Assembly: GCA_965223295.1 (NCBI GenBank)
Contig: CBDCWC010000002.1
Location: 32,001-96,000 of the forward strand
Length of the DNA stretch: 64,000 nt
Origin: Nitrospirales bacterium
Lineage (GTDB): Bacteria; Nitrospirota; Nitrospiria; Nitrospirales; UBA8639
Direction of reading: 5' to 3'
The stretch's first letter is position 1; the number at the start of each line of letters is the position of its first letter. Below are positions 25,784 to 63,191 of this stretch, in pieces. A program made the position numbers and the translations under genes. The notes beneath the pieces are model-generated. The model did no database searches. It was not told where the DNA came from and was given only the letters and a program-made list of their open reading frames with translations.

Positions 25784-27007
25784 CTACGCGACAAGGGGAG
25801 AGAAATGATTTGCCCAATCAATGGCATCCAGATAAAAATCACGGATAGTCGACGGTTCAAGTCTGAGAGACTTGAGTTCCAACCACTTGCCAGATTCATA
25901 GGCTTTGACAGAAGAAAGCACTAACCCCATATCTCCTGTTCCCTCGACTAAGGCATCCGCAATATCCTCAGGTAATGGAAGTTTTTCAAGAATGTGTTCC
26001 ATGGGTGAGTTGTACAAGGTTTCTAAAACTGAAAGCAGGCCCATTGTGAAATATTTTTCTGGTGCCACGGATCCTAATTTTTCTCCCAACCGTTCGCACA
26101 TTTTAGCTCGTACGAGCGCAATGACTAATATTTCATGAGCTTGAGCCTGACCGCTGGCCATGATGATGAGTGTGGCCCATGTTCGAATACGATCGATGCC
26201 AACCATACAGGCAGCATGGTCAATCGATTCGACTCGTCTGGGAAGCCCGACGTACGCAGAATTGACATATCGCAAGACTTTATAGCTGAGAGAGAGATCG
26301 TTGCGAATATGTTGTACGAGTCCTTTAAACGGAATGTGGGGGTCCTGAATTTTCCCCAGTAACTCTAAGAGAGCCACACGGTTTGCGGGAATCTCTCGCC
26401 CCCGAATCACGTCTGGACGAAAAAAGAAATACCCTTGAAAATAGTAGAACCCTAGCTTTTTGCAAGTCTCATAGTCTTCAACCGTCTCTACTTTTTCAGC
26501 GAGGAGACGGACACGTGACTCTCCTATGTGGGACACTTCTCGTTGCAATTGACTTTCGGTTTTTCCCAAGACATCGATTTTGACAATATCGGCGAACTCT
26601 AGAAATAGGCGCGATCGATCATTAAAGACAAAATCGTCCAGCGCAATGGTATAACCTTGCTGTGAAAGTCCTTCAAGTGTTTCAAGGACCTGGGGAGTGG
26701 GTTCCACATTTTCTAGGATTTCGAGCACGACACGATTTTTAGGAAGTGCCTCACAAAAATGTTCCAAGAGAAATTGCTTGGGAATATTGAGGAATGCTAA
26801 ATGAGATCCCACGACATGTTCCAGCCCAATATCTAAATAAGTGTTGAGAAGAACCGTGGCTGTTGCCACGCTCTCATCCTTATAGATAGCCTGACCGATC
26901 TCGCAATTGCGGTAGAGCACCTCGTACCCAATGGTCTTTAACGTTGGCCCGAGAATGGGCTGACGTCCGACAAACACATCTCCATATTGGGCGAGTGCGT
27001 TTTTCAT
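25784..27007 (-). CDS. EAL-HDOD domain protein (YuxH/PdeH-like c-di-GMP phosphodiesterase)
   Basis: RQPI...YEVLYR, LEILE, ALDDF, KID, AEKVE, FQGYFF; HDOD part D..LSYKVLRYVNSA, RAKMCE, GLLS. Confidence 0.92.
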   Translation of the reverse strand: MKNALAQYGDVFVGRQPILGPTLKTIGYEVLYRNCEIGQAIYKDESVATATVLLNTYLDIGLEHVVGSHLAFLNIPKQFLLEHFCEALPKNRVVLEILENVEPTPQVLETLEGLSQQGYTIALDDFVFNDRSRLFLEFADIVKIDVLGKTESQLQREVSHIGESRVRLLAEKVETVEDYETCKKLGFYYFQGYFFFRPDVIRGREIPANRVALLELLGKIQDPHIPFKGLVQHIRNDLSLSYKVLRYVNSAYVGLPRRVESIDHAACMVGIDRIRTWATLIIMASGQAQAHEILVIALVRAKMCERLGEKLGSVAPEKYFTMGLLSVLETLYNSPMEHILEKLPLPEDIADALVEGTGDMGLVLSSVKAYESGKWLELKSLRLEPSTIRDFYLDAIDWANHFSPLVA

Positions 27008-27360
27008 GCTTTGTTCAATCGCCTCTCTTTATTGGGCGCAAGGGTCCGTGATGGAAGCGCAGACATACCTGTATCTATTTTCGGCCAACAAAACCAAACA
27101 ATTGAGATTTGCAGAAAAATGACTAAAATGAAGACAAGCGGCTTTAAGCAGGCATGGCCTATTTTTCATCGTTGCTTATTGATTCGTTCCTGCAGCGCGA
27201 GTTTTCGTCGGTCGTACGAGATACGATTGAGAAAAAATTTTCTTGTGCTGTTGATTAGTGCCTGTTGTTGTCGGTTGTACGACATAAGGGAGGATGGGAT
27301 CGCCACGATCGTGAAGAGTAGTGCCTACTAGAGAGAAAGATCTCCTCCAAGGAAGGCAGC

Positions 27361-29193
27361 TTAGGTTTTTTGGCTAACCGAAGATCTGACAAAGATTGCA
27401 GTCAAGTCAGTTGCGGACACAGGTGGGCTAAAGAAGTGTCCTTGGTATTGATCACATTTGAGAGTTGCCAGGATATCTCGTTGTTCCTGCTTCTCGACAC
27501 CTTCAGCGACGACATTTAAATGGAATTCATGAGCGAGATAAATAATTGCGGATACTAAGGCCTTATCTTCAGGATTGTCGGTGATGTCCATCATGAAGGA
27601 ACGGTCGATTTTTAGTTCGTGGAGTGGAAGACTCTTTAAATAGCTCAGTGATGAATATCCTGTACCAAAGTCATCCATAGAGACCTTTATCCCTAAGGCG
27701 ATCAGTTGGTTCAATGTTTCCGTAGTCTGTTCAACGTTTTCCATGATGAGACTCTCAGTGAGTTCTAACGTCAAATATTGTTGGTCGACATGATGAGACA
27801 GTAAGGCGTCTCTCACGGATTGGACAATCGAGCCTCCGTGAAATTGTTTGGCTGAGAGATTCACTGACACACGAATCCAAATTCCCTGTGCTTGCCAAGA
27901 GGATAGTTGGTTGCAGACTTCCCTTAGTGCCCATTCGCCAAGCGGTACAACGATCCCAGTTTCTTCTGCTAATGGAATAAAGTCATTTGGAGAGACTAAC
28001 GTTCCGTCGGGTTGTTGCCATCGAGCCAAGGCTTCGGTCCCAAGGATTTCTCCGGTTGCGACACTGATCTGAGGTTGATAATGCATGATGAGTTGTTTGT
28101 CTTCGATTGCGTGGCGTAAAGCAGCTTCACGTTTGAGATGCTGATGGCTCTTGGCATTCATCTCCCTCGAATAAAATTGATAGCTTCCCTGATCTTGAGA
28201 GGAAACTTGTGCGCTGGCCCCGATAGCACACTGAACCAAGGTCACGACATCTCTCGCGTCACCGGGGAAACTTGCCATGCCAATGCTGGGGAGAATGGAA
28301 ACTTCAGTGCCATCAGCATCGAAGGGAATCGACATCGCTTCAATAATTCGAGAGGCGATCTTCATCGCATGTTCTGGGTGAGCCATATGTGGGCAGACAA
28401 CTGAAAATTCATCTCCACTCACGTGAAACAAGCATGTCAATTGCTGCTCTTCCTGTATGCCTTTCCCGAGAAGGTCCGTTCCCCGGACACAGGCTTGAAT
28501 CCGGTTGGCGATCTGCTTAATAACCTTGTCACCCACTTGTGGCCCAAACGTGTTGTATATGCGTTTAAACTGAGGCAGGCTAATGTGCAACATGACGAGA
28601 TGATCGTTCCGGGACTCGGCCTGTTGGAGAAACCAGGTCAACCGGTCCAGAAATAAACTCCGGTTTGGTAAGTGTGTTAGGGCATCGTAGTAGGCGAGTT
28701 GGTTTTGATATGCTTTTGCTGCAAGCGTATTGCGTACACGGAGTACCAATTCACTTGGGTCAACTGGCTTCGCCAAAAAATCCGTGGCCCCCCGGTCTAG
28801 AGCTTCGAGTTTGGTTTCAGCATCGGAAGAGGACGTGAGCATAATGACGGGTAGATGTTTGAATAACGAATGAGACCGTATCTGGTGCAAGATTTCAAAT
28901 CCGCTGACTTCCGGCATGACCAGATCGAGCAGAAGGATATCTGGACGACAGGTTTCGATCTCTGAAATGGCTTGAGAGGAATGTTCTATCAGAACAAAGC
29001 GTTGATAGCCCGCGTCCTCTAAAAAGGTTTGCATCACCTCCATGGTGGTGACTTCATCATCAACCATCATGATCGTCGCTTGACTGAGTAAGGAGGGATC
29101 ACTTCCCAGTTCCGAAGGCAGTCCTTGCGTGATGGAGGAACGTTCATGATCCAAGGTGCCTGTTGAAGCTTGGACTGGGCTGAATGATTCCAT
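27361..29193 (-). CDS. Response regulator REC-GGDEF(degenerate)-EAL, predicted phosphodiesterase
   Basis: REC VDDE/LLDLVMP/KP. GGDEF altered to SGDEF and the DxDxFK site replaced by SLPQFK. EAL intact (EALARW, ELTES, DDFGTGYSSL, KIDRSF, EGVE). Confidence 0.92.
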   Translation of the reverse strand: MESFSPVQASTGTLDHERSSITQGLPSELGSDPSLLSQATIMMVDDEVTTMEVMQTFLEDAGYQRFVLIEHSSQAISEIETCRPDILLLDLVMPEVSGFEILHQIRSHSLFKHLPVIMLTSSSDAETKLEALDRGATDFLAKPVDPSELVLRVRNTLAAKAYQNQLAYYDALTHLPNRSLFLDRLTWFLQQAESRNDHLVMLHISLPQFKRIYNTFGPQVGDKVIKQIANRIQACVRGTDLLGKGIQEEQQLTCLFHVSGDEFSVVCPHMAHPEHAMKIASRIIEAMSIPFDADGTEVSILPSIGMASFPGDARDVVTLVQCAIGASAQVSSQDQGSYQFYSREMNAKSHQHLKREAALRHAIEDKQLIMHYQPQISVATGEILGTEALARWQQPDGTLVSPNDFIPLAEETGIVVPLGEWALREVCNQLSSWQAQGIWIRVSVNLSAKQFHGGSIVQSVRDALLSHHVDQQYLTLELTESLIMENVEQTTETLNQLIALGIKVSMDDFGTGYSSLSYLKSLPLHELKIDRSFMMDITDNPEDKALVSAIIYLAHEFHLNVVAEGVEKQEQRDILATLKCDQYQGHFFSPPVSATDLTAIFVRSSVSQKT

Positions 29194-29409: not shown

Positions 29410-31926
29410 TTAGTTCTGGGGAAATTGTTGGTTGCTGGAGACCAGCGGTTCGTCGATTCTGACACGGGAGGCCAGTGCCTGTATCTGGTCAATGTGCTGC
29501 TTCATGAGGGTGAGATTCTCAGCCTTTGCGGCAGCTTCAAGTTCACTGGCTGGCTCGAAAAAGACATCAAATCCTACCGTTCCTCCCGCTCCCTTCAACC
29601 AATGAGCGAGTTTTGCTGAGGCATCAAAGTCCTGCTCTGAATAAGCCGTTTCCATAGCTTGTAGCTGTGTTTCCAAACGACCGACAAAATTGGAAATAAT
29701 CCGTGCAAATTTGGGATTGGCGGAATCCAATCTGGACACAATAGGGGAATTTCCCGTTTCTAAGCACAGAGATTCTTTGATGGCGTCTTGCAATGGCTGG
29801 TTGGGTTCGATGGGCGTGGCTTGGAGTATCTCGGCCAACTTTGTCAGAAAGTGGTTCAGGTCTATGGGTTTGGTGAGGAAATCACTGTACCCGGCAGAGA
29901 AGAGTTCTGGTTCAAATCCTTTCATGGCGTTAGCGGTTAGCGCGATGATTGGCATTTGGAAACCTTGATCCCGCAGCATTCGAGTCGCTGTTAAACCGTC
30001 TAGTTCAGGCATTTGAATATCCATCAGCACGAGATCGTAATCGGTCCTGGAGACCATTTCTACCGCTATGCGTCCATTGGCGGCTTCCTCAACGGTTAAG
30101 TCATAATCTTCCAACACGACTTTGACGAACTCACGATTTTCCGGCCCATCATCCACGACTAGAATTTTGGCGGGAGGGAAGTCCCAATGTATCGGTGCTT
30201 TATTTGTAGAAAGATTGCTGGCTGTGAGGGCCTGCTCGGGGGATATCCAAGTCATGGCGGCGGGAATGGGCGTCTCCAGGGTTACCTTGAAAGTACTTCC
30301 CATGTTCGGCTGACTCTCCACCGTAATGTCGCCACCTAAGGCGCGGGCAAATTTCCGGCTAATGGTTAATCCGAGTCCGGTGCCCCCAAATTTTCGCGTG
30401 ATAGAAGCATCAGCTTGTGTGAAGTCCTCAAAAATACGTTCCATAGCTTCAGAGCTCATGCCCACTCCAGTATCGGAGACATCAATATGAAACCGCAGCG
30501 TGTGATCATTGATCGGTTGGGCATAGGCCTTCACGGTAATCCCGCCCTCCTCCGTGAATTTCACCGCGTTCCCCACAAGGTTCGTGATGATTTGCCGTGT
30601 GCGTCCCGGGTCGCCAATGATGGATGACGGCACATCATCCTGGAGTTGAAGATCCAAGCCGATCCCTTTGTCTTTGGCCTGAACACCAAGAACCTGCACG
30701 ACTTCGAGAATGATGGTATAGGGGGTAAACTCGACCTGCTCGATCTCCAGCCGGCCGGACTCGATTTTGGAAAGATCCAAGATATCGTTAATGAGTTCTA
30801 ATAAATGTTTTCCACTGGAATGGATAATTTCCAGATGATGCCGGGTTTCTTCCGAGTCCCGTCCGAATCCACGCTTGAGGAGTTCCGTGAAACCTAGGAT
30901 GGCATTCATGGGTGTTCGGATTTCATGGCTCATGTTGGCTAAGAACGCGCTCTTGGCTTGGTTAGCCGCTTCGGCGGCTTCTTTGGACTTCAGTAACTCA
31001 ATTTCAGCTTCTTCTAACTGGGTCACATCATCAAAACTGGCGAGGACTCCAACGTATCTTCCCCCGCTGCCGAGGATGGGGGAGCAGTTGATCATAAACG
31101 TCATGCGTTCGTCGTCGGATAACGTGAGGCGCACTCGCTGATTTATTTGCGCCTTACCTGATTCCAAGGCTATATGCCACGGGTGTTGCATGGCGTCGAG
31201 AGATTGTCCATGGGCATCTGCCCAGGGGAACTCCAGGACTTGCCGTCCCAGTAATGCCTCAGGTGTTGTGTGGAGTAAGGTCGCAAAAGCCCGGTTGGCC
31301 AACATAATCTGTTCCTTGTTGTCCAAGACCAACAGGCCTTCGGCCATAGTGTCCAGCGCGGACCGTACTCGCTCGGGAACGGCTTGAGAGGGATCAAGCT
31401 GCTTCAACATTTTGCCCAGATAAAAGTAAAACCCAAAGAAGCATGCTACTGCCACGTAGGTTAAGACCAACAGGTAAGAACCCGCAATCATGTCAACCAA
31501 ACCATTGCTGCCGATTGCATTGAATCGTAATTCCACTTGGCCCCATTGGGTTTCGCCTTCCCAAATTGGGACGGCAACTTGAGAGAGGGTGGAGGAGTCT
31601 CCAGCGGCATGATTGATATTCCAGTAGTCCTCGTGCTTGCCAATCGTCACGAGGAGGTCTCCAGATTCAGTGCGCAAGGCTGCAGAGAGCAGGTCCTCGT
31701 TGCGGTCGACCACGAGCTGTAAAGTCCCTTCGAGTCGGTCAAGATCTCTTTGCGTTAGAAAAATTGAAGTGTTGGCGGCAATGGATTCCGCCAATGCCGT
31801 TCGTCCCTCACGCACCGCTGCCGTTCGGTCTGGGATAAAACCTAAGAAGCTGGCTGTCAGCAGAACGCTGATGACCAGGCAGACTTGGCCAATGGCTAAT
31901 CGAGACTTTGTTGAAAGAATATTCAT
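29410..31926 (-). CDS. Membrane hybrid histidine kinase (TM-sensor-TM-PAS-HisKA-HATPase-REC-Hpt)
   Basis: [53 protein letters not shown]. Confidence 0.95.
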
Positions 31927-31943
31927 CGTCAGTGTTGCCGAGG

Positions 31944-34900
31944 TCAGCGGGACTGTCGTGGTAAACCAGTCTTCCTTTCTGGAGGTTCGGGAGTGGCAGC
32001 TGGTTTTTCAAACATGGTTTCGAGCGAATCTTCTTTGGAGAGGTCCTGATTCTTCGTCCCTTTCTTTCTTCGTTTTCTTGCCGGAGCGTCTAAAATTAAC
32101 AAGGGATTCACAAACTGCCAGGCTGGAACCGTCGACAAGAGAGCCGTGAGAAGGACGCCGCTTCGAAGGAGCCAGATAATATACCCGACGGAAAGTCCGG
32201 TAGAGGCCGCGAGGCTCGAGACCACATACATTTGTTCCGTTTCGGATATCGTATTGAGAGTGTCACGTGCTTGGTCAAGGCTGTTGAGCAATCCGGAAGA
32301 GGGGTTCAGCAAGGCTTGAACCTCATGTTTGAAATCGATAGTTTCAAATGGCAGTTGTAAGAGACTCAAGAGTTCATTGGCGGTGGCCCCCCGGCCTATC
32401 CTGCCGTCGAGAGCTTGGAGCGTTTCGGCATCATTCCCTTGAGATGTGTTGAACGAATCTGGGCCCTTCTGGTTGTCTTCGGAGAGGTTTGAGCCATGAC
32501 TGGAACCAAATCCCTGGGACTCAGTCACAAAAAACTCTCCACTTCCTGGTAATTCTTCCTGTGTATCTCCTTCGTCAGGCGGCGGTGGAGATTCAGGTGA
32601 TGGATCCGGAGGAGGCGGCAGAACAACAAGTGGCAGATCGGTGACTGTGACGGCAATGGTCTGTGTATCGGTTAAGGTCCCATCAGAGGTTTGCACGATC
32701 ACGTCATAGACGTTGTTGGCCCCTACGTCCGTTGGAGCTTGTAGGTCTGGAGCCGTGATGAAGGTCAGCGCGCCAGTGGTGGAGTCTATGCTGAATTGGG
32801 CGGCATCAGCCCCGCCGATAATGCTATAGGTTAGTGGCGTGCCTTCGGGATCTGTGGCTGAGACATTGGTGACAGCGGTGTTGCCAGCTAAGACAGTGGC
32901 GGTGGCGGTGGCACCGCCTCCATTTGACGTAATGCGGGGTGCATCGTTTTGAGGGGTAATGGTGAGATTCACCATTGCGCCGTTCGATACGGTCCCGGCA
33001 AAGTCCTGGATGGTATAGGTAAAACTGTCCGTCAGGGTCTCCGAACCGTTATGGGTATAGACCACGGTTCCATCAGTGTTGATCTGGGTGATTGTGCCGT
33101 TTGTTGGCCCGGAAACGATGGTGATGCTGGTCAAATCGAGGCCGTCGTCGGCATCCGAATCATTGCCCGCCACATTCAATGTGGCAGAGGCCCCTTCGTT
33201 AACGGTGAACGTGTCGGAAACCGCGGTGGGTGAGGTGTTCGTGGCCGTGACAAGAAGTGTGGTGCGGGCCGCGGCACTGTCAGCCGAGCCATCGTTGACG
33301 GTGACATCAATCAGCCGGTTTCCACCGGTGGGTGTGTTGGTGTCTGTGTGTTGATACTGAATGGCTTGGATCAAGGTTTCAGCTTGGGCTTCGGTGAAGA
33401 CGCCGGCGCTTTGTCTGGTAATCGTGAGGGTCGCGGTTCCGGCACCAGTGGCCACGGCGACGTGATAATTGCCTCCTGAGGTATTTTGACTGGCAACTGC
33501 TGTGCCCAAAGCAAATGTATCGCCGTCGAGAATCAATATTTCGGCATTACCATCCTGGATTCCGCTGATAGTAAGCATGACATTAGCGAAGGAGCCGCTA
33601 TCCACATCAGTGACGGTGGCATCGCTGTCAACGATGGCTACAGGCGCTCCACCTTCGGTAAACGTAGTTTGATAGCCGGTTCCGGTCGCACCAGAACTGT
33701 CATCGGCATCCAGGTCGAGCGTGGGCAGATTGTTTACGGAATTAATGGTGACAGTAATGGATCCTGTCGTGTCTAATGCGCCACCGCTGCCTTGGGCGCC
33801 GGTATTTCCGTCGTTAAAGGTGAAATCGATTTGGACGCTGACGGGCGGGTTGCTGCTGGCGTTGGCGTAGGTCAGGCGGTTTAAGAGTTGATCTACCAAG
33901 GTTGAGGTGGCATTTCCGTTAAACGTGATGACCAGCGTCCCGCCACTATTGGTGGTGGCGGTCCCGATGGTGGTGCCGCCTAACACAATGGAGCTGCCTT
34001 CCATGAGCGATCCTGTAACGCCAGCTGCGCTGAAGCGGTCATCCGCATTGGCGCCGCCATTGCGCGCAAGCGTCAATGTGGCGCCGTTATAGTTGTTAGC
34101 CACATCCAATTCAGGATCAGCGATGGTGGCGTTGGAGTCCAGGACTACGGCTATGCTGCCTTCGGTAAAGACAGGGGTGGCATCAAGGCCGCTAAAAGAT
34201 GGGGGTTCATTGACGGGGTTTACGTTGATCGTGGATCGGGCGGTTGTGCTGCTTAATGCTCCATCGCTGACCTGTACGTCTATGAAGCGATTGCCATCGG
34301 TGGGCGTGCTCGTATTGGTATGTTGGTACTGAATGGTTTGGATCAGCGTTTCGGTTTGAGCCAGGGTCCAGGTGCCTCCTCCGGCTTTCGTGATGGTGAC
34401 GTTGGCGGTTCCGGTTCCGGTGGTGATGACGACATGGTAAAGCCCCCCAGAGGTATTCTGCCCCGCCTCAGCCGTGGCTAGAGCAAAGGTACTTCCATCC
34501 AGCTCTAGGATTTCTGCGTTGCCGTCCAGAAGCCCGATGATTGCCAATGTTACGGATGTAAAGGCCGTGCTGTCAGGATCGGATAGCACGGCATCTGTAT
34601 CGGCAATGGATACCAAGCTTCCGCCTTCTGTGAACGTAAGTTGATAATCGATGCCGCTAGCGCCCGAACTGTCATCGGCATCCAGGTCTAATGTCGGGCC
34701 ATTGGATGCCACGTATTCGTAAGAGCCGATATCCACGTTCGCATCGCGGGTGGTGCTGCGTTGGTCAACAGCAGGCGCGCCGATGGAGTTGCCTGCGTTA
34801 ATAGCAGGGCTTCCGGCCAACAACGCATGGGTGAGCGTGGCTCCGCCGTTATTGGCCAACACACTCAACAATGGGTCCACGTTGTTCTGGTCCGAGGGAT

Positions 34901-36620
34901 CGCCTAACAAGGCTGTGCCATCACTGTCGATGTTGTTGCCCAGAGAGGTCAGGGCTACATTGGAATTACCTCCAACGTGATTCACCAAAATGGTGTTTTT
35001 CAGGCTGATTGATCCACTGCCGGCTAGGTTAATGCCATCATTGCCGGCATTCGAGGCAATCGTGGAGTTGGTGAGTGTCGTCGTGCCTCGGTTAAAAATG
35101 GCTCCGCCGTTTCCCACCGCACTGTTGCCGCTGACTGTGGTATTCAGCACTGTGGTGGTTGCTCCGCCCTGTATGGCCAATCCACCGCCCGTGTTGGCGC
35201 TGTTGTTCACAATGGCCACGCGATCCATAATTGCTGTGCCCAAAACGATTACCCCGCCGCCGCTGCCTGTGGTGGTATTGTCCCGCACAATGGCGTCTTG
35301 TAGCGTGAGCGTGTTGCTTGGGCCGACCCAGAGTCCTCCACCTCCCAACAGACCCGTTTCTCCGTTCTGAGCGGTGAGCCTGGAGATGGTAGCAGTGTTA
35401 CTGTGGACGGCGAATATCCGGTCCGGTGTGCTGCCAAGCCCGGAAGCATCAATGATGGTGGTTGTGGCGGAATCGCCAACAATAGTGACATCTTGTAGTA
35501 TGTCTAAGTCGCCGAAAGTGGCATCTGGCGCAAGTTCGTTGCTGGCGCCGATTGAGAGGGTATAGGTTCCAGCACTCAGGACGATTGTGTCTCCGCCTGA
35601 ACCGGCATTGGCTTGCAGAACGGCTTCGCGTAGCGACGTGACGCCATCACCAGCATCGATGACATCGGCAAAGGTCGTCACGTTGATGGTGGCTAGTTTG
35701 CCAATCCACTCTTCTTGCGTGGAGCTATCGATCACGACGTGCGAGTCAATCGTTCCGGTTTGATATTCCAGATCCCAGTTAGCGCCGTACTGCAGGCTGC
35801 CGGTGTTGTCGGTACTGGCGGCCAGGTCGGCGCCGGTAAGTTTGGCCAATAACCTGGCGGCAGCGCTCCCCGCATCGCCTTGTCCAAAGTCACAGCCGTA
35901 GATAAGAAGGTCTGCGTCTTCCGTTAAGGCTTGATGAATCGTGGCTAGTTCATCGGCGTAGGCATCTTGCATGGACATCATGTTGAGCACTCCTGTTCCC
36001 AGTTGCAATTCGCCTTGATTGCCATGAGAAATGACATGAATTGCGTCGATGCCAGACCGGTCTTTCAAGATTTCAGCCATTTGTTCGATGCCGTCTCTGG
36101 TCGGATCTAAAAGAATCACATCGGCATTAGGATCAATGCCTTCCATGAGTGTCTGATAGTCATTGATATTGGTATCGATGAATACAACTTCCTGTCGACT
36201 AGTGGGCGCTGCAACTGTGGATAGCGCTGACTGAAGATTAATGCTGTCCGTGAATGGATTTGAACGAGATTCAGATTCGGGTGGTGTACTGATTTCTTGA
36301 AGGTTGCGATCTTGAGTGATCTGATCCTGAATCACTTCCACCCCGGTGAGAAGGGCCGCCCCGTCAAACATAATTCTTGGCTCCAGAGGCAGCAGTAAAC
36401 CAATGCTTTGAAACGGTTGGTGCTCATTGGAAGGTCGGTAGGGATGTTTCTTTCTGTGTGAGGCACCTTGATTGAATCCTTGCCCCAGAATCGTGTGCGT
36501 GATTTTTGGGAGAAATCGCTGGACCCAATTCTTGCGTAGTGTAGGGGGGACAAGGTGGGATAGACCTGTATCCCTCTTGCTGTGTGTGCGTCTCATCACA
36601 TCCATTAGTTCCAAGAACAT
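31944..36620 (-). CDS. Large surface protein A: LEPR motif, DUF4347, SLREA beta-helix/choice-of-anchor-Q-like region, Ig/cadherin repeats, Pro linker, C-terminal hydrophobic motif
   Basis: [17 protein letters not shown]...SHG...LLIYGCD...LAASTDNTG...[45 protein letters not shown] repeats; GGAGG RBS before ATG 36620 (ORF open to 36695). Confidence 0.9.
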
Positions 36621-53000: not shown

Positions 53001-56000
53001 CCTCCGCGACCGGGAACTTTGTCCAAGGGAATTTCATTGGAACAGATATTACCGGAACATTAGCGCTTGGCAATGGGGATGGGGTTCGGATTGAAAATGG
53101 GGCGAGTAATAATACCATTGGCGGTTCCACCGCTGGAGTACGCAATATTATTTCAGGCAATACGAGTGACGGGATTGAAATATCTGGAGCAACTTCCACG
53201 GGCAACATTGTGCAGGGTAATTATATTGGTACGGACGTGACCGGCACAGTTGATCTGGGAAATAATGTGGCCGGTATTCGGCTCAATGGGGCGAATAATA
53301 TTATTGGTGGGACGACGGCCGGAGAGGGCAATGTGATTGCTGGGAATAGTTCTGGGATTACCATTGCCTCAACCGATGCGACGGGGAACACGATTGAAGG
53401 GAATTATATTGGCACGGATGCCACGGGTACGGCGGCATTGGGAAATTCGTTTGGTATTTGGGTGACGGCAGGGTCAAGCAACGTTATTGGGGGCACCGTA
53501 TCTGGAGCGGGTAATGTAATTGCCGGGAATACCAATCATGGTATTTATCTGCTTGGAAGTGGGACAACAGGAAACCTTGTTCAGGGAAATTATATCGGCA
53601 CGACGTCTGGAAGCCTTGCCCTTGGTAATGGTGGAGCTGGGGTGTTTGTGAGTAGTGGAGCGTCAAGCAATATCATTGGCGGAACGAGTGTTGGTGCGCG
53701 CAATGTGATATCTGGTAATACAAGTGATGGAATCTATGTTACTGGGGCAGGGACAGACGACAACGTCATTCAGGGTAATTTTATTGGGACGAATGTGGCT
53801 GGAACTGCGGCCCTTGGGAATGGTGATCGAGGTATTCAAATCGAAGATAACGCCTCCAATACGCAAATTGGTGGCACTGCAGCTGGTGCGGGTAATGTGA
53901 TTTCTGGGAATAGCAACGATGGCATCATCCTATCGAATTCCTCTACTGGCAGCATCATTGAGGGGAATTTTATTGGCACTGATCTGACCGGAACAACCAA
54001 TATTGGCAATGGCGCCTGGGGCATACGAATAACGAATTCCAGTGGTAACACCATAGGAGGAACAGAGGTTGATGCCGGAAACGCCATTGCGTACAACGCG
54101 CAAGCAGGTATCGGACTCCAGGACACGTCTGGTGCTGGCAATAGTATTCTCGGTAATGCGATCTACTTGAATTCGGGGATAGGGATTGATCTTGGAATTG
54201 ATGGCGTGACCGCTAATGATACGGGAGATGGGGATACGGGGCCTAATGATCTGCAAAATTTCCCGGTGTTAACTTCCGTGTACACAGATGGGTCCAATCT
54301 GAATGTGATTGGTACTTTTAACAGCACGGCCAGCACGACCTATCGCATCGAATTTTTTGCCAGTACGACGGCGGATGGCTCAGGCTATGGAGAAGCGGAA
54401 CGCTATCTCGGCTTTGCCACGGTCACGACTGATGGAAGTGGCAATGCCATCTTCAATGCCACGCTCGCTGCAGCTGTAGGCCTTGGCGAATTTGTCACGG
54501 CCACGGCTACAGTTGATCTTGGTGGAGGCAATTATGAGAATACGTCGGAGTTTGCCGCTAACGTAGCAGCGGGAAATCCAATTCCCTTCATTGACCTTGA
54601 TGCTGATGACAGTTCGGGTGCCGGCATCACCAACTTCGTGACGAGTTTTACAGAAGACGGTGGGCCAGTCACATTGGCCGATAGTGATGCTACCCTTACG
54701 GACCTGGATAGCGCCAATCTCACTTCTCTTACTGTCACGATTACCAACTTACAGGATGGAGCTTTTGAACTCTTAGCGGCTGATACAACGGGGACCAATA
54801 TCACCGCGAGCTATGATAGTGGGACAGGCGTTCTCACATTGAGTGGTACGGATACCGTCGCCAATTATGAACAGGTGTTGCGCACCGTCATGTATGACAA
54901 CACCTCTGATAGCCCAACAACAACGACCAGGGTCATTCAGTTTCAAGCCAACGACGGGACCTACTCAGGAAATGTTGCGACCACGAATCTTACGGTAACT
55001 GCCGTCAATGATGCGCCGGTGAACACGGTACCGGGCGCGCAGACGGTGGCGGAAGATACCTCGCTGGCTATCAGTGGCATTTCCGTGACCGATGTGGACG
55101 GCAACCTCTCGACGGTGCAGCTGAGCGTGACGAACGGGACCTTAAACGTCACGCTCTCGGGCAGTGCTACGATCAGCGCGGGAGCCAATGGGAGTAATAC
55201 CCTGACGCTCTCGGGGTCCCATGCTGACATCAATGCGACGTTGACGTCGCTGAGCTATCAAGGGACCCTGAACTATACCGGCAGCGATACGCTGACCATC
55301 ACGAGCACGGATGGTAACTCGGCGACGGATGTGGACACGGTGGCCATCACGGTGACCAACGTGGATGATGCGGCGACCATTGGCGGGCAGACGAGCTACA
55401 GTGGCAACGAAGGCGACGTGGGCAGCGGCACCATGACGGCCACCGACCCGGATGGGCTGACCGACGGGACGTACTTCACGGTGACGACGCCGGCCAGTAA
55501 CGGCACCGCGGCCATTGACCCAGCGACGGGCGCGTGGACGTTTACGCCGACCGACCCCAACTGGTTTGGAACGGACAGCTTCACGGTGACGGTGACGGAC
55601 GATCAAGGGGGCACGACCACGCAAGTGATCTCGGTGACCCTCGCCAACGTGGATGATGCGGCGACCATTGGCGGGCAGACGAGCTACAGTGGCAACGAAG
55701 GCGACGTGGGCAGCGGCACCATGACGGCCACCGACCCGGATGGGCTGACCGACGGGACGTACTTCACGGTGACGACGCCGGCCAGTAACGGCACCGCGGC
55801 CATTGACCCAGCGACGGGCGCGTGGACGTTTACGCCGACCGACCCCAACTGGTTTGGAACGGACAGCTTCACGGTGACGGTGACGGACGATCAAGGGGGC
55901 ACGACCACGCAAGTGATCTCGGTGACCCTCGCCAACGTGGATGATGCGGCGACCATTGGCGGGCAGACGAGCTACAGTGGCAACGAAGGCGACGTGGGCA

Positions 56001-59000
56001 GCGGCACCATGACGGCCACCGACCCGGATGGGCTGACCGACGGGACGTACTTCACGGTGACGACGCCGGCCAGTAACGGCACCGCGGCCATTGACCCAGC
56101 GACGGGCGCGTGGACGTTTACGCCGACCGACCCCAACTGGTTTGGAACGGACAGCTTCACGGTGACGGTGACGGACGATCAAGGGGGCACGACCACGCAA
56201 GTGATCTCGGTGACCCTCGCCAACGTGGATGATGCGGCGACCATTGGCGGGCAGACGAGCTACAGTGGCAACGAAGGCGACGTGGGCAGCGGCACCATGA
56301 CGGCCACCGACCCGGATGGGCTGACCGACGGGACGTACTTCACGGTGACGACGCCGGCCAGTAACGGCACCGCGGCCATTGACCCAGCGACGGGCGCGTG
56401 GACGTTTACGCCGACCGACCCCAACTGGTTTGGAACGGACAGCTTCACGGTGACGGTGACGGACGATCAAGGGGGCACGACCACGCAAGTGATCTCGGTG
56501 ACCCTCGCCAACGTGGATGATGCGGCGACCATTGGCGGGCAGACGAGCTACAGTGGCAAGAAGGCGACGTGGGCAGCGGCACCATGACGGCCACCGACCC
56601 GGATGGGCTGACCGACGGGACGTACTTCACGGTGACGACGCCGGCCAGTAACGGCACCGCGGCCATTGACCCAGCGACGGGCGCGTGGACGTTTACGCCG
56701 ACCGACCCCAACTGGTTTGGAACGGACAGCTTCACGGTGACGGTGACGGACGATCAAGGGGGCACGACCACGCAAGTGATCTCGGTGACCCTCGCCAACG
56801 TGGATGATGCGGCGACCATTGGCGGGCAGACGAGCTACAGTGGCAACGAAGGCGACGTGGGCAGCGGCACCATGACGGCCACCGACCCGGATGGGCTGAC
56901 CGACGGGACGTACTTCACGGTGACGACGCCGGCCAGTAACGGCACCGCGGCCATTGACCCAGCGACGGGCGCGTGGACGTTTACGCCGACCGACCCCAAC
57001 TGGTTTGGAACGGACAGCTTCACGGTGACGGTGACGGACGATCAAGGGGGCACGACCACGCAAGTGATCTCGGTGACCCTCGCCAACGTGGATGATGCGG
57101 CGACCATTGGCGGGCAGACGAGCTACAGTGGCAACGAAGGCGACGTGGGCAGCGGCACCATGACGGCCACCGACCCGGATGGGCTGACCGACGGGACGTA
57201 CTTCACGGTGACGACGCCGGCCAGTAACGGCACCGCGGCCATTGACCCAGCGACGGGCGCGTGGACGTTTACGCCGACCGACCCCAACTGGTTTGGAACG
57301 GACAGCTTCACGGTGACGGTGACGGACGATCAAGGGGGCACGACCACGCAAGTGATCTCGGTGACCCTCGCCAACGTGGATGATGCGGCGACCATTGGCG
57401 GGCAGACGAGCTACAGTGGCAACGAAGGCGACGTGGGCAGCGGCACCATGACGGCCACCGACCCGGATGGGCTGACCGACGGGACGTACTTCACGGTGAC
57501 GACGCCGGCCAGTAACGGCACCGCGGCCATTGACCCAGCGACGGGCGCGTGGATCGTTTACGCCGACCGACCCCAACTGGTTTGGAACGGACAGCTTCAC
57601 GGTGACGGTGACGGACGATCAAGGGGGCACGACCACGCAAGTGATCTCGGTGACCCTCGCCAACGTGGATGATGCGGCGACCATTGGCGGGCAGACGAGC
57701 TACAGTGGCAACGAAGGCGACGTGGGCAGCGGCACCATGACGGCCACCGACCCGGATGGGCTGACCGACGGGACGTACTTCACGGTGACGACGCCGGCCA
57801 GTAACGGCACCGCGGCCATTGACCCAGCGACGGGCGCGTGGACGTTTACGCCGACCGACCCCAACTGGTTTGGAACGGACAGCTTCACGGTGACGGTGAC
57901 GGACGATCAAGGGGGCACGACCACGCAAGTGATCTCGGTGACCCTCGCCAACGTGGATGATGCGGCGACCATTGGCGGGCAGACGAGCTACAGTGGCAAC
58001 GAAGGCGACGTGGGCAGCGGCACCATGACGGCCACCGACCCGGATGGGCTGACCGACGGGACGTACTTCACGGTGACGACGCCGGCCAGTAACGGCACCG
58101 CGGCCATTGACCCAGCGACGGGCGCGTGGACGTTTACGCCGACCGACCCCAACTGGTTTGGAACGGACAGCTTCACGGTGACGGTGACGGACGATCAAGG
58201 GGGCACGACCACGCAAGTGATCTCGGTGACCCTCGCCAACGTGGATGATGCGGCGACCATTGGCGGGCAGACGAGCTACAGTGGCAACGAAGGCGACGTG
58301 GGCAGCGGCACCATGACGGCCACCGACCCGGATGGGCTGACCGACGGGACGTACTTCACGGTGACGACGCCGGCCAGTAACGGCACCGCGGCCATTGACC
58401 CAGCGACGGGCGCGTGGACGTTTACGCCGACCGACCCCAACTGGTTTGGAACGGACAGCTTCACGGTGACGGTGACGGACGATCAAGGGGGCACGACCAC
58501 GCAAGTGATCTCGGTGACCCTCGCCAACGTGGATGATGCGGCGACCATTGGCGGGCAGACGAGCTACAGTGGCAACGAAGGCGACGTGGGCAGCGGCACC
58601 ATGACGGCCACCGACCCGGATGGGCTGACCGACGGGACGTACTTCACGGTGACGACGCCGGCCAGTAACGGCACCGCGGCCATTGACCCAGCGACGGGCG
58701 CGTGGACGTTTACGCCGACCGACCCCAACTGGTTTGGAACGGACAGCTTCACGGTGACGGTGACGGACGATCAAGGGGGCACGACCACGCAAGTGATCTC
58801 GGTGACCCTCGCCAACGTGGATGATGCGGCGACCATTGGCGGGCAGACGAGCTACAGTGGCAACGAAGGCGACGTGGGCAGCGGCACCATGACGGCCACC
58901 GACCCGGATGGGCTGACCGACGGGACGTACTTCACGGTGACGACGCCGGCCAGTAACGGCACCGCGGCCATTGACCCAGCGACGGGCGCGTGGACGTTTA

Positions 59001-61027
59001 CGCCGACCGACCCCAACTGGTTTGGAACGGACAGCTTCACGGTGACGGTGACGGACGATCAAGGGGGCACGACCACGCAAGTGATCTCGGTGACCCTCGC
59101 CAACGTGGATGATGCGGCGACCATTGGCGGGCAGACGAGCTACAGTGGCAACGAAGGCGACGTGGGCAGCGGCACCATGACGGCCACCGACCCGGATGGG
59201 CTGACCGACGGGACGTACTTCACGGTGACGACGCCGGCCAGTAACGGCACCGCGGCCATTGACCCAGCGACGGGCGCGTGGACGTTTACGCCGACCGACC
59301 CCAACTGGTTTGGAACGGACAGCTTCACGGTGACGGTGACGGACGATCAAGGGGGCACGACCACGCAAGTGATCTCGGTGACCCTCGCCAACGTGGATGA
59401 TGCGGCGACCATTGGCGGGCAGACGAGCTACAGTGGCAACGAAGGCGACGTGGGCAGCGGCACCATGACGGCCACCGACCCGGATGGGCTGACCGACGGG
59501 ACGTACTTCACGGTGACGACGCCGGCCAGTAACGGCACCGCGGCCATTGACCCAGCGACGGGCGCGTGGACGTTTACGCCGACCGACCCCAACTGGTTTG
59601 GAACGGACAGCTTCACGGTGACGGTGACGGACGATCAAGGGGGCACGACCACGCAAGTGATCAGCGTGACGTTGGCGAACGTGAACGATGGGCCAGTGGC
59701 GAACGACGATAGTTTTACCACTCTAGAAGACACTCCGATTTCTGCAACACTTGGGACAGGAGTCTTAGCCAATGATACCGATGTGGATGGAGATTCGTTA
59801 ACCGTTAACACAATTCCTATCATGGACGTCTCAAATGGGGCATTAGTTCTGAATACCGATGGCAGCTTTACCTATACACCGAATATCGGCTGGAGTGGAA
59901 CGGATACCTTTACCTATCAGATTACGGATGGTAATGGAGGCAGTGCGCAGGCCACCGTGACCCTTACGGTAGTCAGTGTGAACGATTCCCCGGTCTTCAC
60001 GTCGCATGGTGGTGGAGCCACCGCTGGTGTCAGCGTTGCGGAGAATCTGACCAATGTGGCGGCCATGACGGCGATGGATCCCGATGGGGATCCCTTGACC
60101 TATAGCATTGTGGGAGGCGAGGATGCCGCTCGTTTCACGGTCGATGCGACGACAGGGGCACTAAGGTTTATGAGCGCTCCAGATTTTGAGCATCCAACTG
60201 ACGTCGGCGGAGACAATGTGTATGAAGTGCAGGTGCAGGTGAGTGATGGGCGGGGGGGTGCGACTCTCCAAACGCTAACCGTGTCGGTGACGGACGTCGC
60301 GGAGGGCTTGGTCCTGCTACCGGATCCCACCCCGGATCCCACTCCGGAGCCGACGCCGGAACCAGAGCTGATGCCCGAGGTAGAGGCCGAAATAGCAATG
60401 TTGGCACCCAGTGGTTCCGGGGGAGAAGGCGAGGGGAGCCGCGAAGGGACATATGCGGAGCTAGCCAGTCGAGGGCTGGAAGACCAAGCCCAGGTTGGAA
60501 CCGACCGTGAGGTGGTGGATGTGCGGAACTTGCCGCCGCTACTGCGACCAGGGGCCTGGGCCACCACGTCCGACCAGATTCGGTCCTATTATCCCGATCC
60601 GGTAGATATGACGAAAACAGCATTGCCGACTGAATTTCTTCAGCAATTGAGTACATTTTCCGATGAATTAGGAGAGACAATGGACGAGCAGACCACGGCC
60701 CGGTCCATGTTCGTGAACATGGTGAAGAGTACGGGGCTGGCGCTGTGGACAGGAATTGTGGCTTGGATGGTCCGAGGCGGCGCGTTACTAACAGGCTTGA
60801 TGGCAGCGGCTCTCCCGGCGTGGCGGCAGTTTGATCCGGTGCCGATTCTGCGGATGGATAAAAAGGACCAGGAAGCCTGGTCTCGCCGAGTGAAGGAAGC
60901 GGCCACAATGGAAGCCCGAGAACATCAGGGGTTAGATCAGATTCTTCAGGATGCGGGTAAAGAATCCTCTCCGTCTACATACGAAACGTCATCTGCGAAG
61001 AATACAAAATTCACATCACAGTCTTAG
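44021..61027 (+). CDS. Giant surface protein B (~5,668 aa after correcting two compensating indels): LEPR motif, DUF4347, 5 LamG/pentraxin-like domains, Ig/cadherin domains, long beta-helix, 15 VCBS-like repeats, Pro linker, C-terminal hydrophobic motif
   Basis: ORFs 44021-56587, 56569-57672 and 57530-61027 join across a missing C after 56559 and an extra T at 57554; total span 17007 nt is divisible by 3. Confidence 0.9.
55358..59677 (+). repeat. Tandem array of 15 x 288 bp (96 aa Ig/VCBS-like) near-identical units
   Basis: Unit NVDDAATIGG...DSFTVTVTDDQGGTTTQVISVTLA. Units look identical at nucleotide level except two single-base indels and synonymous changes in the last ~15 nt. Confidence 0.97.
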
Positions 61028-61072
61028 TTCACGACTCATCGTATTTTCTCAGCGAAGTTGTTCCTTGAGAGG

Positions 61073-61194: not shown

Positions 61195-61683
61195 CTGTTG
61201 GTATCAGGCTCTTGGGCCACAACCTCTGACCAAATTCAAGCTAACTACCCGGATCCGGTGGATATGACAAAAACAGCATAGCCGACCGAATTCCTTCAGC
61301 GATTGAATTCGTTTTCCGATGAATGAAGGAAGAACCTGCAAGAAGAGACAGGTGCCTGCTCCATGTTGGTCAATATGGTAAAGAATCAGGGGGTGGTGCC
61401 CTCAACCGAGATTGTAGCCTGGATGGTTCGAGTTGGCATGTTGCTGACGAGGTTTATGGAGGCGGCAGTTCCAGCCTGTCGCCAATTTGATCCAGTGCCG
61501 ATATTGGGCATGGGTAAAAAGGGCCGAGAAACCTGGATCCGACGAGTAAAGGAAACCGCAACAATGGAACGTTGCAAATACCAAGGATTAGACCAAATTC
61601 TTCAAAAAGCTGAGAAAGAGGCACCGGCTTTGATTTTGGGAAAGACTGCATCAGATACGCCGCGAACGATGACTTTCTCATGA
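61192..61683 (+). pseudogene. Decayed paralogous 3' end of a giant surface protein
   Basis: Colinear with about 60536-61027 (WATTSDQI...YPDPVDMTKTA...VAWMVR...RQFDPVPIL...GLDQILQ); in-frame stops TAG 61279 and TGA 61324; final TGA overlaps the cyclase ATG. Confidence 0.88.
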
Positions 61684-63191
61684 AGCGTCCTACTCCACTA
61701 CTTTGGATTAGTTTTGGCCTTGTTTCGCTTACGCTCAGTATCCTTTTAATGAGCGACCTAGCCGTTGATTTGATCCCTGATCAAGCCGTCGAAATTTTTG
61801 AATATCGACAAAAATATAGCGAGGCTCTTGCGGTGCAATATTCTTTGTTGGCAGAAAATGGGGATAGTCGCGCGATTCAAGAAGCCTTTGATCTCTTAGT
61901 GGAACGGAATGACGATATCCTGTCTGCTGCGGTTGTCCTAAGTGACGGGGATCTGTTGGCCTTTGCTGGAAGGCATCAGGAGGTCTGGGAACAGCCGCCG
62001 GGTGATTCTTCAACTTCTGACCACATTCAAGTTCCAATTTTCAATGGGGCAGACCGCTGGGGAACGGTTCAACTCCGGTTTCGTACGCTTGAGAATGGTA
62101 GTTGGAGTGAGTGGCTCAACGATCCATGGACTCGATTTTTAGGTATGGTGGTAGGAGCAACGTTTTTGGGGTATTTTTTGTATATGAAACGGACTCTTCG
62201 CCAACTTGATCCCAGTGCAGTGGTGCCTCTGCGGGTGAAGGCCGCTTTTGATGTGCTGACCGAAGGCGTAGTGTTATTGAACAATCAAGGAGACATTGTG
62301 TTGGCTAACCGTGCTTTTGGGAAAGTTGTGAATCAAGATCCCAGTGAGATGCTCGGGAAGCGTTTAGATGAATTTTCCTGGACCTCGGTTCCTCCGGCGC
62401 CACCCTTAACGCAATTACCGTGGGTTACGGCTCGACAGGATAAGTGCTTGGAGTTGGATGTGCCCATCATGCTTCCTGATCCTTCAGGCAAGTTACTGAA
62501 ATTTCGTGTCAATTGTACGCCGATTTTGAATGAACAAGAACGGGTCCAGGGGATGTTAGTGTCGCTTGATGACGTAACCAAGCTGGAAGAAACGATTCGC
62601 GAGTTAGAATCTTCCAAAGCCGAGTTAGAAACCTTGGCAATGCGTGATCCTCTTACTGGGTGTTTTAATCGCCGTGCCCTGTTTGAAGCCTTTGAAGATC
62701 TTTGCAGGGTAAGCCTTGCTAGCGGACAAGATCTTGGATGTATTATGACGGATATTGACCATTTCAAATCCTTTAATGATCGATTTGGTCATGCTGTTGG
62801 AGACCAGGTCATTCAAGTCGTCTCGAATATCCTCACTGAGACGATAAGGCCAACCGACATTATTAGTCGGTATGGGGGAGAGGAATTCTGTATCTTATTG
62901 CCTGGGCAAGGTCCAGAGGGAACAGCAATGGCGGCTGAACGTCTTCGTCTTGCTGTCGAAACTCAGGCTAACCAAATCATTCGGACAACCCATTCAACCA
63001 AGATTACCATGAGTTTTGGTATTTCCTGTTTATCCCTAGGTTCGGCTGATGCATTAGAACTTGTCGATCAAGCGGATAAAGGTCTCTATGCGGCAAAACA
63101 GGGAGGGAGGAATCAGGTCGGACAGTGGACCCACACGGGTCCAGTAGCCGGATCGCTCTCTGCCGAAGAACTTGTCAGATTTTTATCGTGA
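61680..63191 (+). CDS. Membrane diguanylate cyclase (TM-sensor-TM-PAS-GGDEF)
   Basis: DPLTG..NRR, DIDHFKSFND.FGH..GD, RPTD I-site, RYGGEEF intact; N-terminus homologous to the kinase at 29410-31926. Confidence 0.95.
   Translation: MKRPTPLLWISFGLVSLTLSILLMSDLAVDLIPDQAVEIFEYRQKYSEALAVQYSLLAENGDSRAIQEAFDLLVERNDDILSAAVVLSDGDLLAFAGRHQEVWEQPPGDSSTSDHIQVPIFNGADRWGTVQLRFRTLENGSWSEWLNDPWTRFLGMVVGATFLGYFLYMKRTLRQLDPSAVVPLRVKAAFDVLTEGVVLLNNQGDIVLANRAFGKVVNQDPSEMLGKRLDEFSWTSVPPAPPLTQLPWVTARQDKCLELDVPIMLPDPSGKLLKFRVNCTPILNEQERVQGMLVSLDDVTKLEETIRELESSKAELETLAMRDPLTGCFNRRALFEAFEDLCRVSLASGQDLGCIMTDIDHFKSFNDRFGHAVGDQVIQVVSNILTETIRPTDIISRYGGEEFCILLPGQGPEGTAMAAERLRLAVETQANQIIRTTHSTKITMSFGISCLSLGSADALELVDQADKGLYAAKQGGRNQVGQWTHTGPVAGSLSAEELVRFLS

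Follow-up and report, generated by a model that had tools for sequence, protein, structure and literature searches.

How bacteria notice contact with a surface, and how proteins of thousands of residues are carried across two membranes, are long-standing questions, and the locus described here offers named, testable parts for both. It lies in a 64-kb stretch of DNA from a Nitrospirales bacterium (positions 32,001 to 96,000 of contig CBDCWC010000002.1, assembly GCA_965223295.1), called the window below, and encodes two giant proteins, A and B, a TolC-type export set, and sensors linked to enzymes of cyclic diguanosine monophosphate (c-di-GMP). Several described systems resemble it in part. Substrates of type I secretion bear C-terminal signals, and c-di-GMP genes often adjoin adhesin genes, as in Lap-type loci. 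With type I secretion, which depends on an ATP-binding cassette (ABC) transporter, the window shares a TolC-type factor; it differs in having no ABC transporter, no type-I HlyD above cut-off and no RTX repeats, and in that the C-terminus of its giants is a hydrophobic tail domain. With LapA-LapBCE and the regulators LapD and LapG it shares a giant repeat adhesin, a TolC-type channel, adaptors and c-di-GMP enzymes in one locus, and in both systems the adhesin presumably remains attached to the envelope. In the window, however, the recognition element, LEPR, stands at the N-terminus, and a C-terminal segment in the inner membrane would serve as tether in place of an N-terminal plug.

A closer relative of the export set has been described in silico. 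Kamneva, Poudel and Ward (2015, PLoS One, PMC4452313) reported a module consisting of an HlyD-type adaptor, a GAF-HlyD protein, a Peptidase_M50-HlyD protein and sometimes an OEP/TolC protein, with no ABC transporter; this "Type I secretion-related" module is defined by a secondary SecA_DEAD protein, and one Nitrospirae genome is among the cases. The set of HlyD, GAF-HlyD and M50-HlyD proteins, together with OEP, is also found in the window, whereas of the SecA proteins the genome of the window has only the housekeeping one. In the accessible text of that paper DUF4347 has 0 occurrences, and no cargo, C-terminal tail or sensors are named. Giant LEPRxLL proteins of 20,000-37,000 residues, with no known transport signal and with a TolC-like gene between them, were reported from Chlorochromatium epibionts to be expressed and to leave the cell (bioRxiv 10.64898/2026.03.19.712371). 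They share the N-terminal LEPRxLL and the nearby TolC-like gene with the window, a likeness by description, and the accessible part of that account mentions neither an M50 fusion nor a comparable tail or a paired sensor.

The main result is that a C-terminal tail domain of the giant proteins and the input domain of the sensors encoded next to them travel together in Nitrospirota, Beta- and Gammaproteobacteria, a delta-proteobacterial bin and Planctomycetota, and end in c-di-GMP enzymes. The locus probably consists of two modules, each conserved and separable from the other: an export set that depends on a leader, and a signalling pair of adhesin tail and sensor. A preliminary description, made from the window alone, had read it as a single distinct system for export and sensing; the associations hold, but the modules do not form one obligate system, because the pair is also found on a protein of the same genome that has a Sec signal and no LEPR, because it is present in genome G293, where the M50 fusion and DUF4347 were not found, and because half of the Burkholderiales genomes with DUF4347 lack tail and sensor. 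The same description knew of no earlier characterisation. This holds, as far as found, for the tail domain, the sensor input domain and their pairing, of which no description was met in the literature, where unnamed domains are unsearchable by name and subscription journals and supplements lay outside the search; it does not hold for the exporter core, which was already described in silico in 2015 (PMC4452313, accessible text).

The tail domain

The ends of A, B and other giants of the Nitrospirales align over about 115 residues and define a conserved domain, so that the hydrophobic C-terminal motif noted earlier is indeed common to A and B but is not a short motif. The domain starts with a helix-like juxtamembrane stretch, followed by a hydrophobic segment of the form G..LS.GF..W.LR.G.LL.S, in which the arginine is invariant, and by the motif P-A-W-x-x-F-D-P-L-P-V-L; then come a basic run, an acidic run and E-F-x-G-L, and helix-breaking glycine and proline residues are included. 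Besides the arginine, the invariant residues of the tail are G, W, the PAW of the motif and P. In A, the segment at residues 1501-1519 is the only hydrophobic one of the protein, and 7 lysines or arginines lie within the 30 residues after it.

A profile made from 13 tails matched 5218 representative proteins at E <= 0.001 and 3246 at E <= 1e-10, with the tail located at the C-terminus in 150 of 150 among the matches listed. No Pfam or NCBIfam model matches it (Pfam down to E <= 0.1), comparison of the profile with solved structures gave nothing better than E 0.5, and in the ESM Atlas the tail falls into unnamed clusters. The domain is widespread and apparently undescribed before. Among the listed tail proteins of at least 800 residues (n = 36), 18 have a LEPR-like motif, 3 start just past it and 2 have a Sec-like N-terminus, while the remainder look truncated. 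The genome of the window itself contains a third tail protein, outside the window, of 967 residues with beta-helix/NosD-like repeats, a Sec signal peptide and neither LEPR nor DUF4347; its gene stands directly before that of a 520-residue cyclase with the same input domain (G000:C2:896628-901091, L025:2629-7091).

In one genus of the Nitrospirales, DUF4347 giants beside the exporter end in a shortened tail (G059, L023:6392-12583; G152, L024:10437-15254), which keeps the first half of the hydrophobic segment and has lost the PAW..FDPLP part, and no sensor match was found there. Other arrangements were also seen. At L053:6421-12281 a TolC-type gene directly precedes that of an 829-residue cadherin-like tail protein with no DUF4347, followed by a sensor kinase, with the M50 set not in view, and at L090:2-15494 (Chromatiales) and L091:2136-12451 (Burkholderiales) a tail giant is followed by a second DUF4347 giant, as tandem adhesins, and not by a sensor.

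The sensor and its pairing with the tail

As the preliminary description had stated, the sensors that follow the two giants, a hybrid histidine kinase after A and a diguanylate cyclase after B, have the same input domain: their first 311 residues are 35% identical (E 6e-59). In this common region, two hydrophobic segments enclose about 130 residues and are followed by a PAS domain; in the hybrid kinase, whose gene starts 17 nt downstream of the gene for A, the two segments lie at residues 10-28 and 152-170. The input domain of the hybrid kinase is 44-51% identical to those of hybrid kinases beside tail genes in loci of Pseudomonadota and Pirellulaceae, and that of the cyclase was found by word search in 251 proteins, of which the named ones are all from Nitrospirota. 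In the sensor, R43, E48, S111 and W127 are invariant. Residues 1-190 have no Pfam match at E <= 0.1, the sensor profile found nothing better than E 1.5 among solved structures, and in the ESM Atlas the N-terminal part lies near unnamed, single-Cache, CHASE and LapD_MoxY_N clusters at 0.87-0.92, values that serve as leads only.

The pairing was followed in three ways. In the genome of the window, a tail gene precedes all three sensors. Secondly, tail alignment A1 (Nitrospirales) was used to scan one genome per species, and the best 80 of 504 confirmed places were inspected; these loci were picked by the tail alone, with a pattern, PAW[RQN]x[FIV]DP[LV]P, that favours Nitrospira-like tails. Downstream sequence of 700 nt or more is available for 77 of these loci, 58 of which have the sensor domain starting -60 to +1500 nt past the tail gene. 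They are 46 of 57 with Nitrospir* labels and 12 of 20 with other labels (among them Granulosicoccaceae, Burkholderiales/Burkholderiaceae, Rhodocyclaceae, one beta- and one delta-proteobacterial bin, and Pirellulaceae). Thirdly, whole genomes were compared within two lineages. In a sample of 301 Nitrospirota genomes the full tail is present in 25, exactly the 25 that have an intact sensor, and six genomes with the shortened tail, in which the PAW..FDPLP part is missing, have no sensor; tail-coding sequence lies directly upstream of 31 of the 39 sensor places, in G044, G293 and G297 as decayed remnants like the one found in the window. In 151 Burkholderiales genomes, chosen as a second lineage and carrying no completeness figures, the sensor profile and the tail profile match the same 14 genomes, 13 of which also have DUF4347, and the tail lies within about 300 nt upstream of 18 of 19 sensor places. 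The co-occurrence and adjacency that the preliminary description had suggested looking for were found for this pair, as they were for the exporter and the LEPR/DUF4347 giants (see below).

While the input domain stays constant, the output domain varies, from cyclases of about 503 residues to kinases of about 637 and hybrid kinases of 835-976. Fifty-nine tail/sensor pairs were surveyed: the sensor is itself a cyclase in 9, a GGDEF/EAL gene follows within 6 kb downstream in 32, and no such gene was found with the remaining 18, 10 of which have less than 4 kb of sequence past the sensor. Tail gene, hybrid kinase and REC-GGDEF-EAL gene follow each other, as in the left arm of the window, in 7 loci labelled other than Nitrospirota; in a Pirellulaceae locus the partner is a REC-GGDEF-REC-HD_5 protein, and in a Nitrospira locus it is a REC-HisKA protein followed by REC-GGDEF. 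In the window, the cyclase has an intact site (GGEEF, within RYGGEEFCI), while the site of the REC-GGDEF-EAL protein is degenerate (SGDEF), and this protein is likely to be the phosphodiesterase output of the left arm. To judge from domain content, the wiring of tail and sensor converges on predicted c-di-GMP enzymes.

When 61 tails were placed in a tree, the ones followed by a hybrid kinase grouped in a single clade of 10 (SH-aLRT 98), which unites the tail of A with proteobacterial and Pirellulaceae tails and includes neither the tail of B nor that of the third tail protein of the genome. Sensor class was found to change 3 times along this tree, against a mean of 19.4 after shuffling, and none of 200 shuffles gave as low a number. 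Tail and sensor are thus kept as units; the clustering speaks for conservation of the pair and does not imply binding, because the branch of A is long and a common history is expected of linked genes. That the association is functional is considered very probable, and a direct contact between the two domains is somewhat favoured by these sequence data.

The locus and its giant proteins

The preliminary description had drawn a mirror-like layout, with a left arm on the minus strand, an export set in the centre and a right arm on the plus strand. The map of open reading frames (ORFs) and the domain scans found all the named genes of the 64-kb window where they had been placed, with domains mostly as described. 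In the protein given as REC-EAL, both of these domains were borne out, and the GGDEF domain with the degenerate SGDEF had been overlooked. The features are as follows.

25784-27007, minus strand: EAL-HDOD protein with a partial EAL (EVL), last gene of the left arm (Pfam HDOD 1.2e-16; EAL 3e-13, profile positions 103-236 only; motif YEVLYR)
27361-29193, minus strand: REC-GGDEF(degenerate SGDEF)-EAL response regulator (Pfam Response_reg 8e-28, GGDEF 5e-28, EAL 4e-76; SGDEF and EAL motifs)
29410-31926, minus strand: hybrid histidine kinase, with transmembrane segment, periplasmic domain of about 130 residues, transmembrane segment, PAS, HisKA, HATPase, REC and Hpt (Pfam)
31944-36695, minus strand: giant protein A, 1583 residues (ORF map, Pfam, NCBIfam)
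35562-36461, minus strand: leader and DUF4347 region of A, a putative cysteine protease domain of the CPD type (alignment with His in ISHG and Cys in YGC)
31947-32336, minus strand: C-terminal tail domain of A (tail alignments)
36905-38479, plus strand: TolC-type outer-membrane factor (Pfam OEP 5e-32, two stretches)
38476-39315, plus strand: short periplasmic adaptor, or membrane fusion protein (TIGR01730 RND_mfp 2e-35, 122 bits, cut-off 94.9; HlyD_3)
39380-40843, plus strand: GAF-adaptor, with cytoplasmic GAF domain, transmembrane segment and periplasmic adaptor (Pfam GAF 3.4e-5, residues 68-202; HlyD_3 2e-14; hydrophobic segment at residues 218-236)
40843-42972, plus strand: fusion of an M50 (site-2-protease-like) intramembrane metalloprotease with a periplasmic adaptor (Peptidase_M50 3e-10, HlyD_3 9e-10)
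43069-43702, minus strand: AbrB-type/PIN toxin-antitoxin pair, VapBC-like, between the M50 fusion and B (ORFs and similarity)
44021-61027, plus strand: giant protein B, about 5668 residues if read through (ORF map, Pfam, NCBIfam)
55356-59662, plus strand: tandem repeat within B, 15.0 copies of 288 nt (99% matches; repeat analysis)
60635-61024, plus strand: C-terminal tail domain of B (tail alignment)
61261-61683, plus strand: decayed duplicate of the tail, located between B and the cyclase (106-residue ORF at 61363-61683 that resembles the end of B)
61680-63191, plus strand: diguanylate cyclase with the tail-associated input domain and PAS (Pfam GGDEF 7e-43, PAS; RYGGEEFCI)

Both giants carry [11 protein letters not shown], then DUF4347 (Pfam E 3e-54 and 3e-57; PF14252, 183.5 and 193.4 bits, cut-off 24.6), and these N-terminal regions, which the preliminary description had said were common to A and B, are 59% identical across 264 residues. 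The element, presumably the one known under the name LEPR-XLL, is kept in 16 of 16 aligned N-terminal regions, with the consensus LEPR(I/L)(M/L)FD(G/A)AA preceded by a basic region; none of the NCBIfam models for it scored on the window proteins. Neither A nor B has a Sec-like hydrophobic N-terminus, and no RTX or hemolysin-type calcium-binding repeats were found on them with Pfam and NCBIfam. After DUF4347, A continues with beta-helix/choice-of-anchor Q and cadherin-like repeats up to its membrane tail, and B with laminin-G, cadherin-like and beta-helix repeats and 15 near-identical repeats of 96 residues, which are Ig-like, before its own tail.

B had been read as one open frame but lies in three, because one nucleotide is lost near 56560 and one is gained near 57554; the second change restores the first frame and leads to the length of about 5668 residues. 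Both fall inside the 288-nt repeat; of 14 full units of this repeat, 12 are identical. The two indels are more likely to be assembly errors than the mark of a broken gene, because the orthologue of B in a sister genome (L026) is a single open frame of 4854 residues. The decayed tail copy behind B matches the tail profile at G000:C2:93261-93620 with E 4e-22 and contains one TGA and one TAG; decayed or duplicate tail copies of this kind may survive either as small genes for a partner or as fossils.

The export set

The M50 fusion has six hydrophobic segments, matches PF02163 with 40.2 bits (cut-off 27.2), and contains both of the metal-binding motifs of Peptidase M50, HExxH (as HELGH) and NxxPxxxxDG (as NLNPLLRFDG). 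Over residues 36-394 it also resembles the daptide_HExxH-like model NF041824 (2.9e-47, 161.6 bits, below the cut-off of 300). Its M50 part is thus similar to the leader peptidases of ribosomally synthesised and post-translationally modified peptides (the daptide HExxH protease, YydH/LiaK), with both motifs kept and a score below the family cut-off; in contrast to these, the window enzyme has a periplasmic adaptor as fusion partner, and a giant protein, not a small peptide, is encoded beside it. Close relatives of the fusion, like those of the cyclase, bear names that place the organism in the Nitrospirales.

The genome of the window, of 3.78 Mb in 3 contigs and 100% complete, has two DUF4347 genes only (A and B) and one M50 fusion. 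It made it possible to look for the parts of better known secretion and release systems, whose absence from the cluster the preliminary description had pointed out. No gene for an ABC transporter or other ATPase lies within the cluster according to the ORF map, Pfam and NCBIfam. Elsewhere, four ABC_membrane proteins are encoded, one of which is MsbA (616 bits, cut-off 602), and the rest are below every type-I cut-off, so that no type I secretion ABC exporter of the HlyB, PrtD or LssB type reaches its cut-off in the complete genome; nor does any protein exceed the cut-off for type-I HlyD (TIGR01843; best 71 bits against 208.65), and the three adaptors of the window match the general HlyD_3/RND_mfp models only. 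An ABC-dependent type I system encoded at another place in the genome, which had been named as a finding that would speak against a distinct system, was rejected for want of an exporter or type-I HlyD at cut-off. The sole SecA_DEAD match, with no second one in the genome, is the frame of the 907-residue housekeeping SecA on another contig, and a second SecA motor was likewise rejected. Control of the LapG type was also rejected, since no Peptidase_C93 match was found in the complete genome with a model whose control matched in Caulobacter; the best match to LapD (NF045673), on the REC-GGDEF-EAL protein, has 139 bits against a cut-off of 1020, and LapD_MoxY_N (PF16448) had no match in the genome, nor did its control give one. 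The cluster is thus one with no recognisable motor, and no classical type I system is encoded elsewhere in the genome.

The link of this set to the LEPR/DUF4347 giants was examined in the two samples. A strong match to the M50-adaptor fusion (E < 1e-100) is present in 34 of the 301 Nitrospirota genomes, 32 of which have DUF4347, as against 4 of the other 267, and according to the coordinate tables 30 of the 34 have a DUF4347 match on the same strand that starts no more than 4 kb downstream. In Burkholderiales, DUF4347 was found in 26 of 151 genomes and an M50 match of this type (frames of 700-1270 residues) in 30, with 22 of the 26 DUF4347 genomes having such a match, compared with 8 of the other 125; in 8 loci the order M50 fusion, DUF4347, tail and sensor was seen on a single contig. 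This suggests an exporter dedicated to LEPR/DUF4347 proteins that have no Sec signal, although the export route itself is a proposal. It points to a TolC-dependent secretion that would do without the ABC motor by which type I systems are defined.

A paralogous M50-adaptor family is also present in the Nitrospirales, with frames of 716-797 residues that are 27-30% identical. It is the second match in G044, G222, G162, G240, G177, G204, G059 and G192, and in G273 and G289 the paralogue (28% identity) is found without any DUF4347 match.

DUF4347 as a candidate protease

In 16 aligned N-terminal regions, the cysteine of Y-G-C is invariant and the histidine of I-S-H-G nearly so. Comparison of the DUF4347 profile with solved structures gave one match, chain G of 9qpe, a "DUF4347 domain-containing protein", in which the same histidine and cysteine were aligned. 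9QPE is the Hcp3-Tce1 complex of Pseudomonas aeruginosa, and the accessible text of the paper equates His186 and Cys240 of Tce1 with the dyad of the TcdB cysteine protease domain (CPD) and calls Tce1 a putative protease (PMC13323088); PA0256 (Tce1) is stated elsewhere to contain DUF4347 (PMC8262886, accessible part). DUF4347 is therefore probably a CPD-like His/Cys protease domain, because its invariant residues align with those of Tce1 equated to the TcdB dyad. The likeness to the proteases of TcdB and MARTX and to Tce1 lies in the conserved histidine and cysteine; Tce1, however, is a cargo effector of type VI secretion, whereas DUF4347 of the window is N-terminal in giant envelope proteins.

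A possible mechanism and its alternatives

In the scheme that is put forward, TolC, the short adaptor, the GAF-adaptor and the M50 fusion would form an envelope-spanning conduit without an ABC transporter, which the LEPR-tagged giants would enter N-terminus first and leave via TolC. The M50 fusion would recognise the leader and perhaps clip it; either the M50 enzyme or DUF4347 would remove or use the leader, DUF4347 acting by cutting itself or by cutting the leader. The GAF domain may gate the export machine, and its closing of a c-di-GMP feedback loop is a speculation. The tail would stay in the inner membrane, N-out/C-in with its charged end in the cytoplasm, an orientation expected because of the basic run after the hydrophobic segment and because the Sec-exported protein bears the same tail. 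It would contact the sensor in or at the membrane, and the state of the adhesin (present, exported, pulled or cut off) would set c-di-GMP. The arm of B would raise c-di-GMP via its GGEEF cyclase, while in that of A the hybrid kinase would act on the REC-SGDEF-EAL protein, which probably lowers it.

Sensor kinases can be set by accessory membrane proteins, examples being MzrA-EnvZ, SafA-PhoQ and LiaF-LiaS. The logic proposed here is the same, with the difference that the partner would be the domain at the end of a giant adhesin, or of a beta-helix protein exported by Sec. That adhesins report attachment to sensors was the proposal of the preliminary description and is kept here as such. In full, tail and sensor would constitute an adhesion receptor, the giant threading the TolC/adaptor conduit and its pull or loss being read as a change in c-di-GMP (mechanosensory, outside-in); this is offered tentatively, as a possibility that may well prove wrong, and the same reserve applies to its second part, an export machine needing neither an ABC transporter nor a SecA-like motor. 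If the tail does talk to the sensor, giant adhesins would be signalling receptors as well as glue, and two receptors with opposite outputs would let the cell compare two kinds of contact. In nitrite oxidisers, which live in flocs and biofilms of wastewater and drinking water, the module may control attachment.

A number of observations weigh against this scheme. Contact of tail and sensor, the topology of the tail and passage through the apparatus are all predictions from sequence and gene association. A sensor is not downstream in 19 of the 77 tail loci, no tail lies upstream of 8 of the 39 Nitrospirota sensor places, and both tail and sensor are missing from 13 of the 26 DUF4347 genomes of Burkholderiales. 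The genomes within each sample are kin, and the counts overstate their independence; the cases outside Nitrospirota are mostly metagenome bins with unverified labels, some of which may be wrong. The sensors also carry PAS and could respond to unrelated cues. On the export side, this genome has no recognisable energy source for the apparatus, and residues 1-120 of the M50 fusion have no Pfam match at E <= 0.1. The protease assignment of DUF4347 combines a weak sequence match (E 0.013) with the structural comparison of a paper in which Tce1 is a putative protease, and B, interrupted by two indels, might be a pseudogene in this strain.

The tail-sensor pairing would fit the opposite direction equally, namely an inside-out control by Lap-like logic, in which the sensors act on the adhesin and decide between tethering and release. 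The periplasmic domain of the sensor would then bind the juxtamembrane part of the tail or hold a protease, and DUF4347 or the M50 enzyme would cut. Two proteases are indeed built into the system, the truncated tail accompanies loss of the sensor, and the N-terminal part of the sensor lies near LapD_MoxY_N (0.87, language-model features, a lead only). The sensors, however, bear classical outputs, cyclase and kinase, in place of a LapD-like degenerate c-di-GMP receptor, so that the input domain would be expected to pass information on to the cytoplasm, and the genome has no LapG-type protease that could be found; inside-out control is hence regarded as unlikely.

Another explanation needs no signalling through the tail at all. 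Ordinary environmental sensors may have been placed in an adhesin operon where c-di-GMP controls expression of the adhesin, the tail being a mere anchor, and the common neighbourhood of c-di-GMP and adhesin genes in Lap-type loci, the PAS domain that could take another signal and the sensors with no adjacent tail all agree with it. Such co-regulation would not, however, lead one to expect that the link is specific to one input domain and one tail, to the point that both occur in the same 14 of 151 Burkholderiales genomes, that outputs swap between cyclase, kinase and hybrid kinase while input domain and tail stay, that decayed tail remnants remain right upstream of sensors, that tails cluster by sensor class across phyla, and that DUF4347 giants without the tail are also without the sensor. 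It is given about the same small chance as inside-out control.

Site-2 proteases cleave membrane helices, and N-out/C-in is not the usual orientation of their substrates. That the tail serves the exporter as a C-terminal signal for sorting or secretion, in the manner of type I substrates, or a substrate helix of the M50 enzyme, with the sensor in its place incidentally, would suit the helix-breaking glycine and proline residues but is very improbable, in view of the tail on a Sec-signal protein without a LEPR leader, of its presence in G293, where M50 fusion and DUF4347 were not found, of exporter-adjacent giants without a full tail (G059, G152 and 13 Burkholderiales genomes), and of the basic stretch, which suggests the N-out/C-in orientation.

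Family models for the tail and the input domain would end the "hypothetical" annotation of such genes.

Neighbouring genes

The left boundary of the cluster is a lipoyl synthase-like ORF (24690-25607, minus strand), in whose translation a radical-SAM CxxxCxxC was recognised by eye. In the toxin-antitoxin pair between the M50 fusion and B, the AbrB/SpoVT-type antitoxin-like ORF of 82 residues (43454-43702) overlaps the PIN-domain ORF of 132 residues (43069-43467). The PIN gene is 83% identical in the locus of a relative (L030), while other Nitrospirales have 0.1-0.6 kb at the same spot. Downstream of the cyclase, an ORF of at least 216 residues (63302-64000, minus strand) runs past the end of the window.

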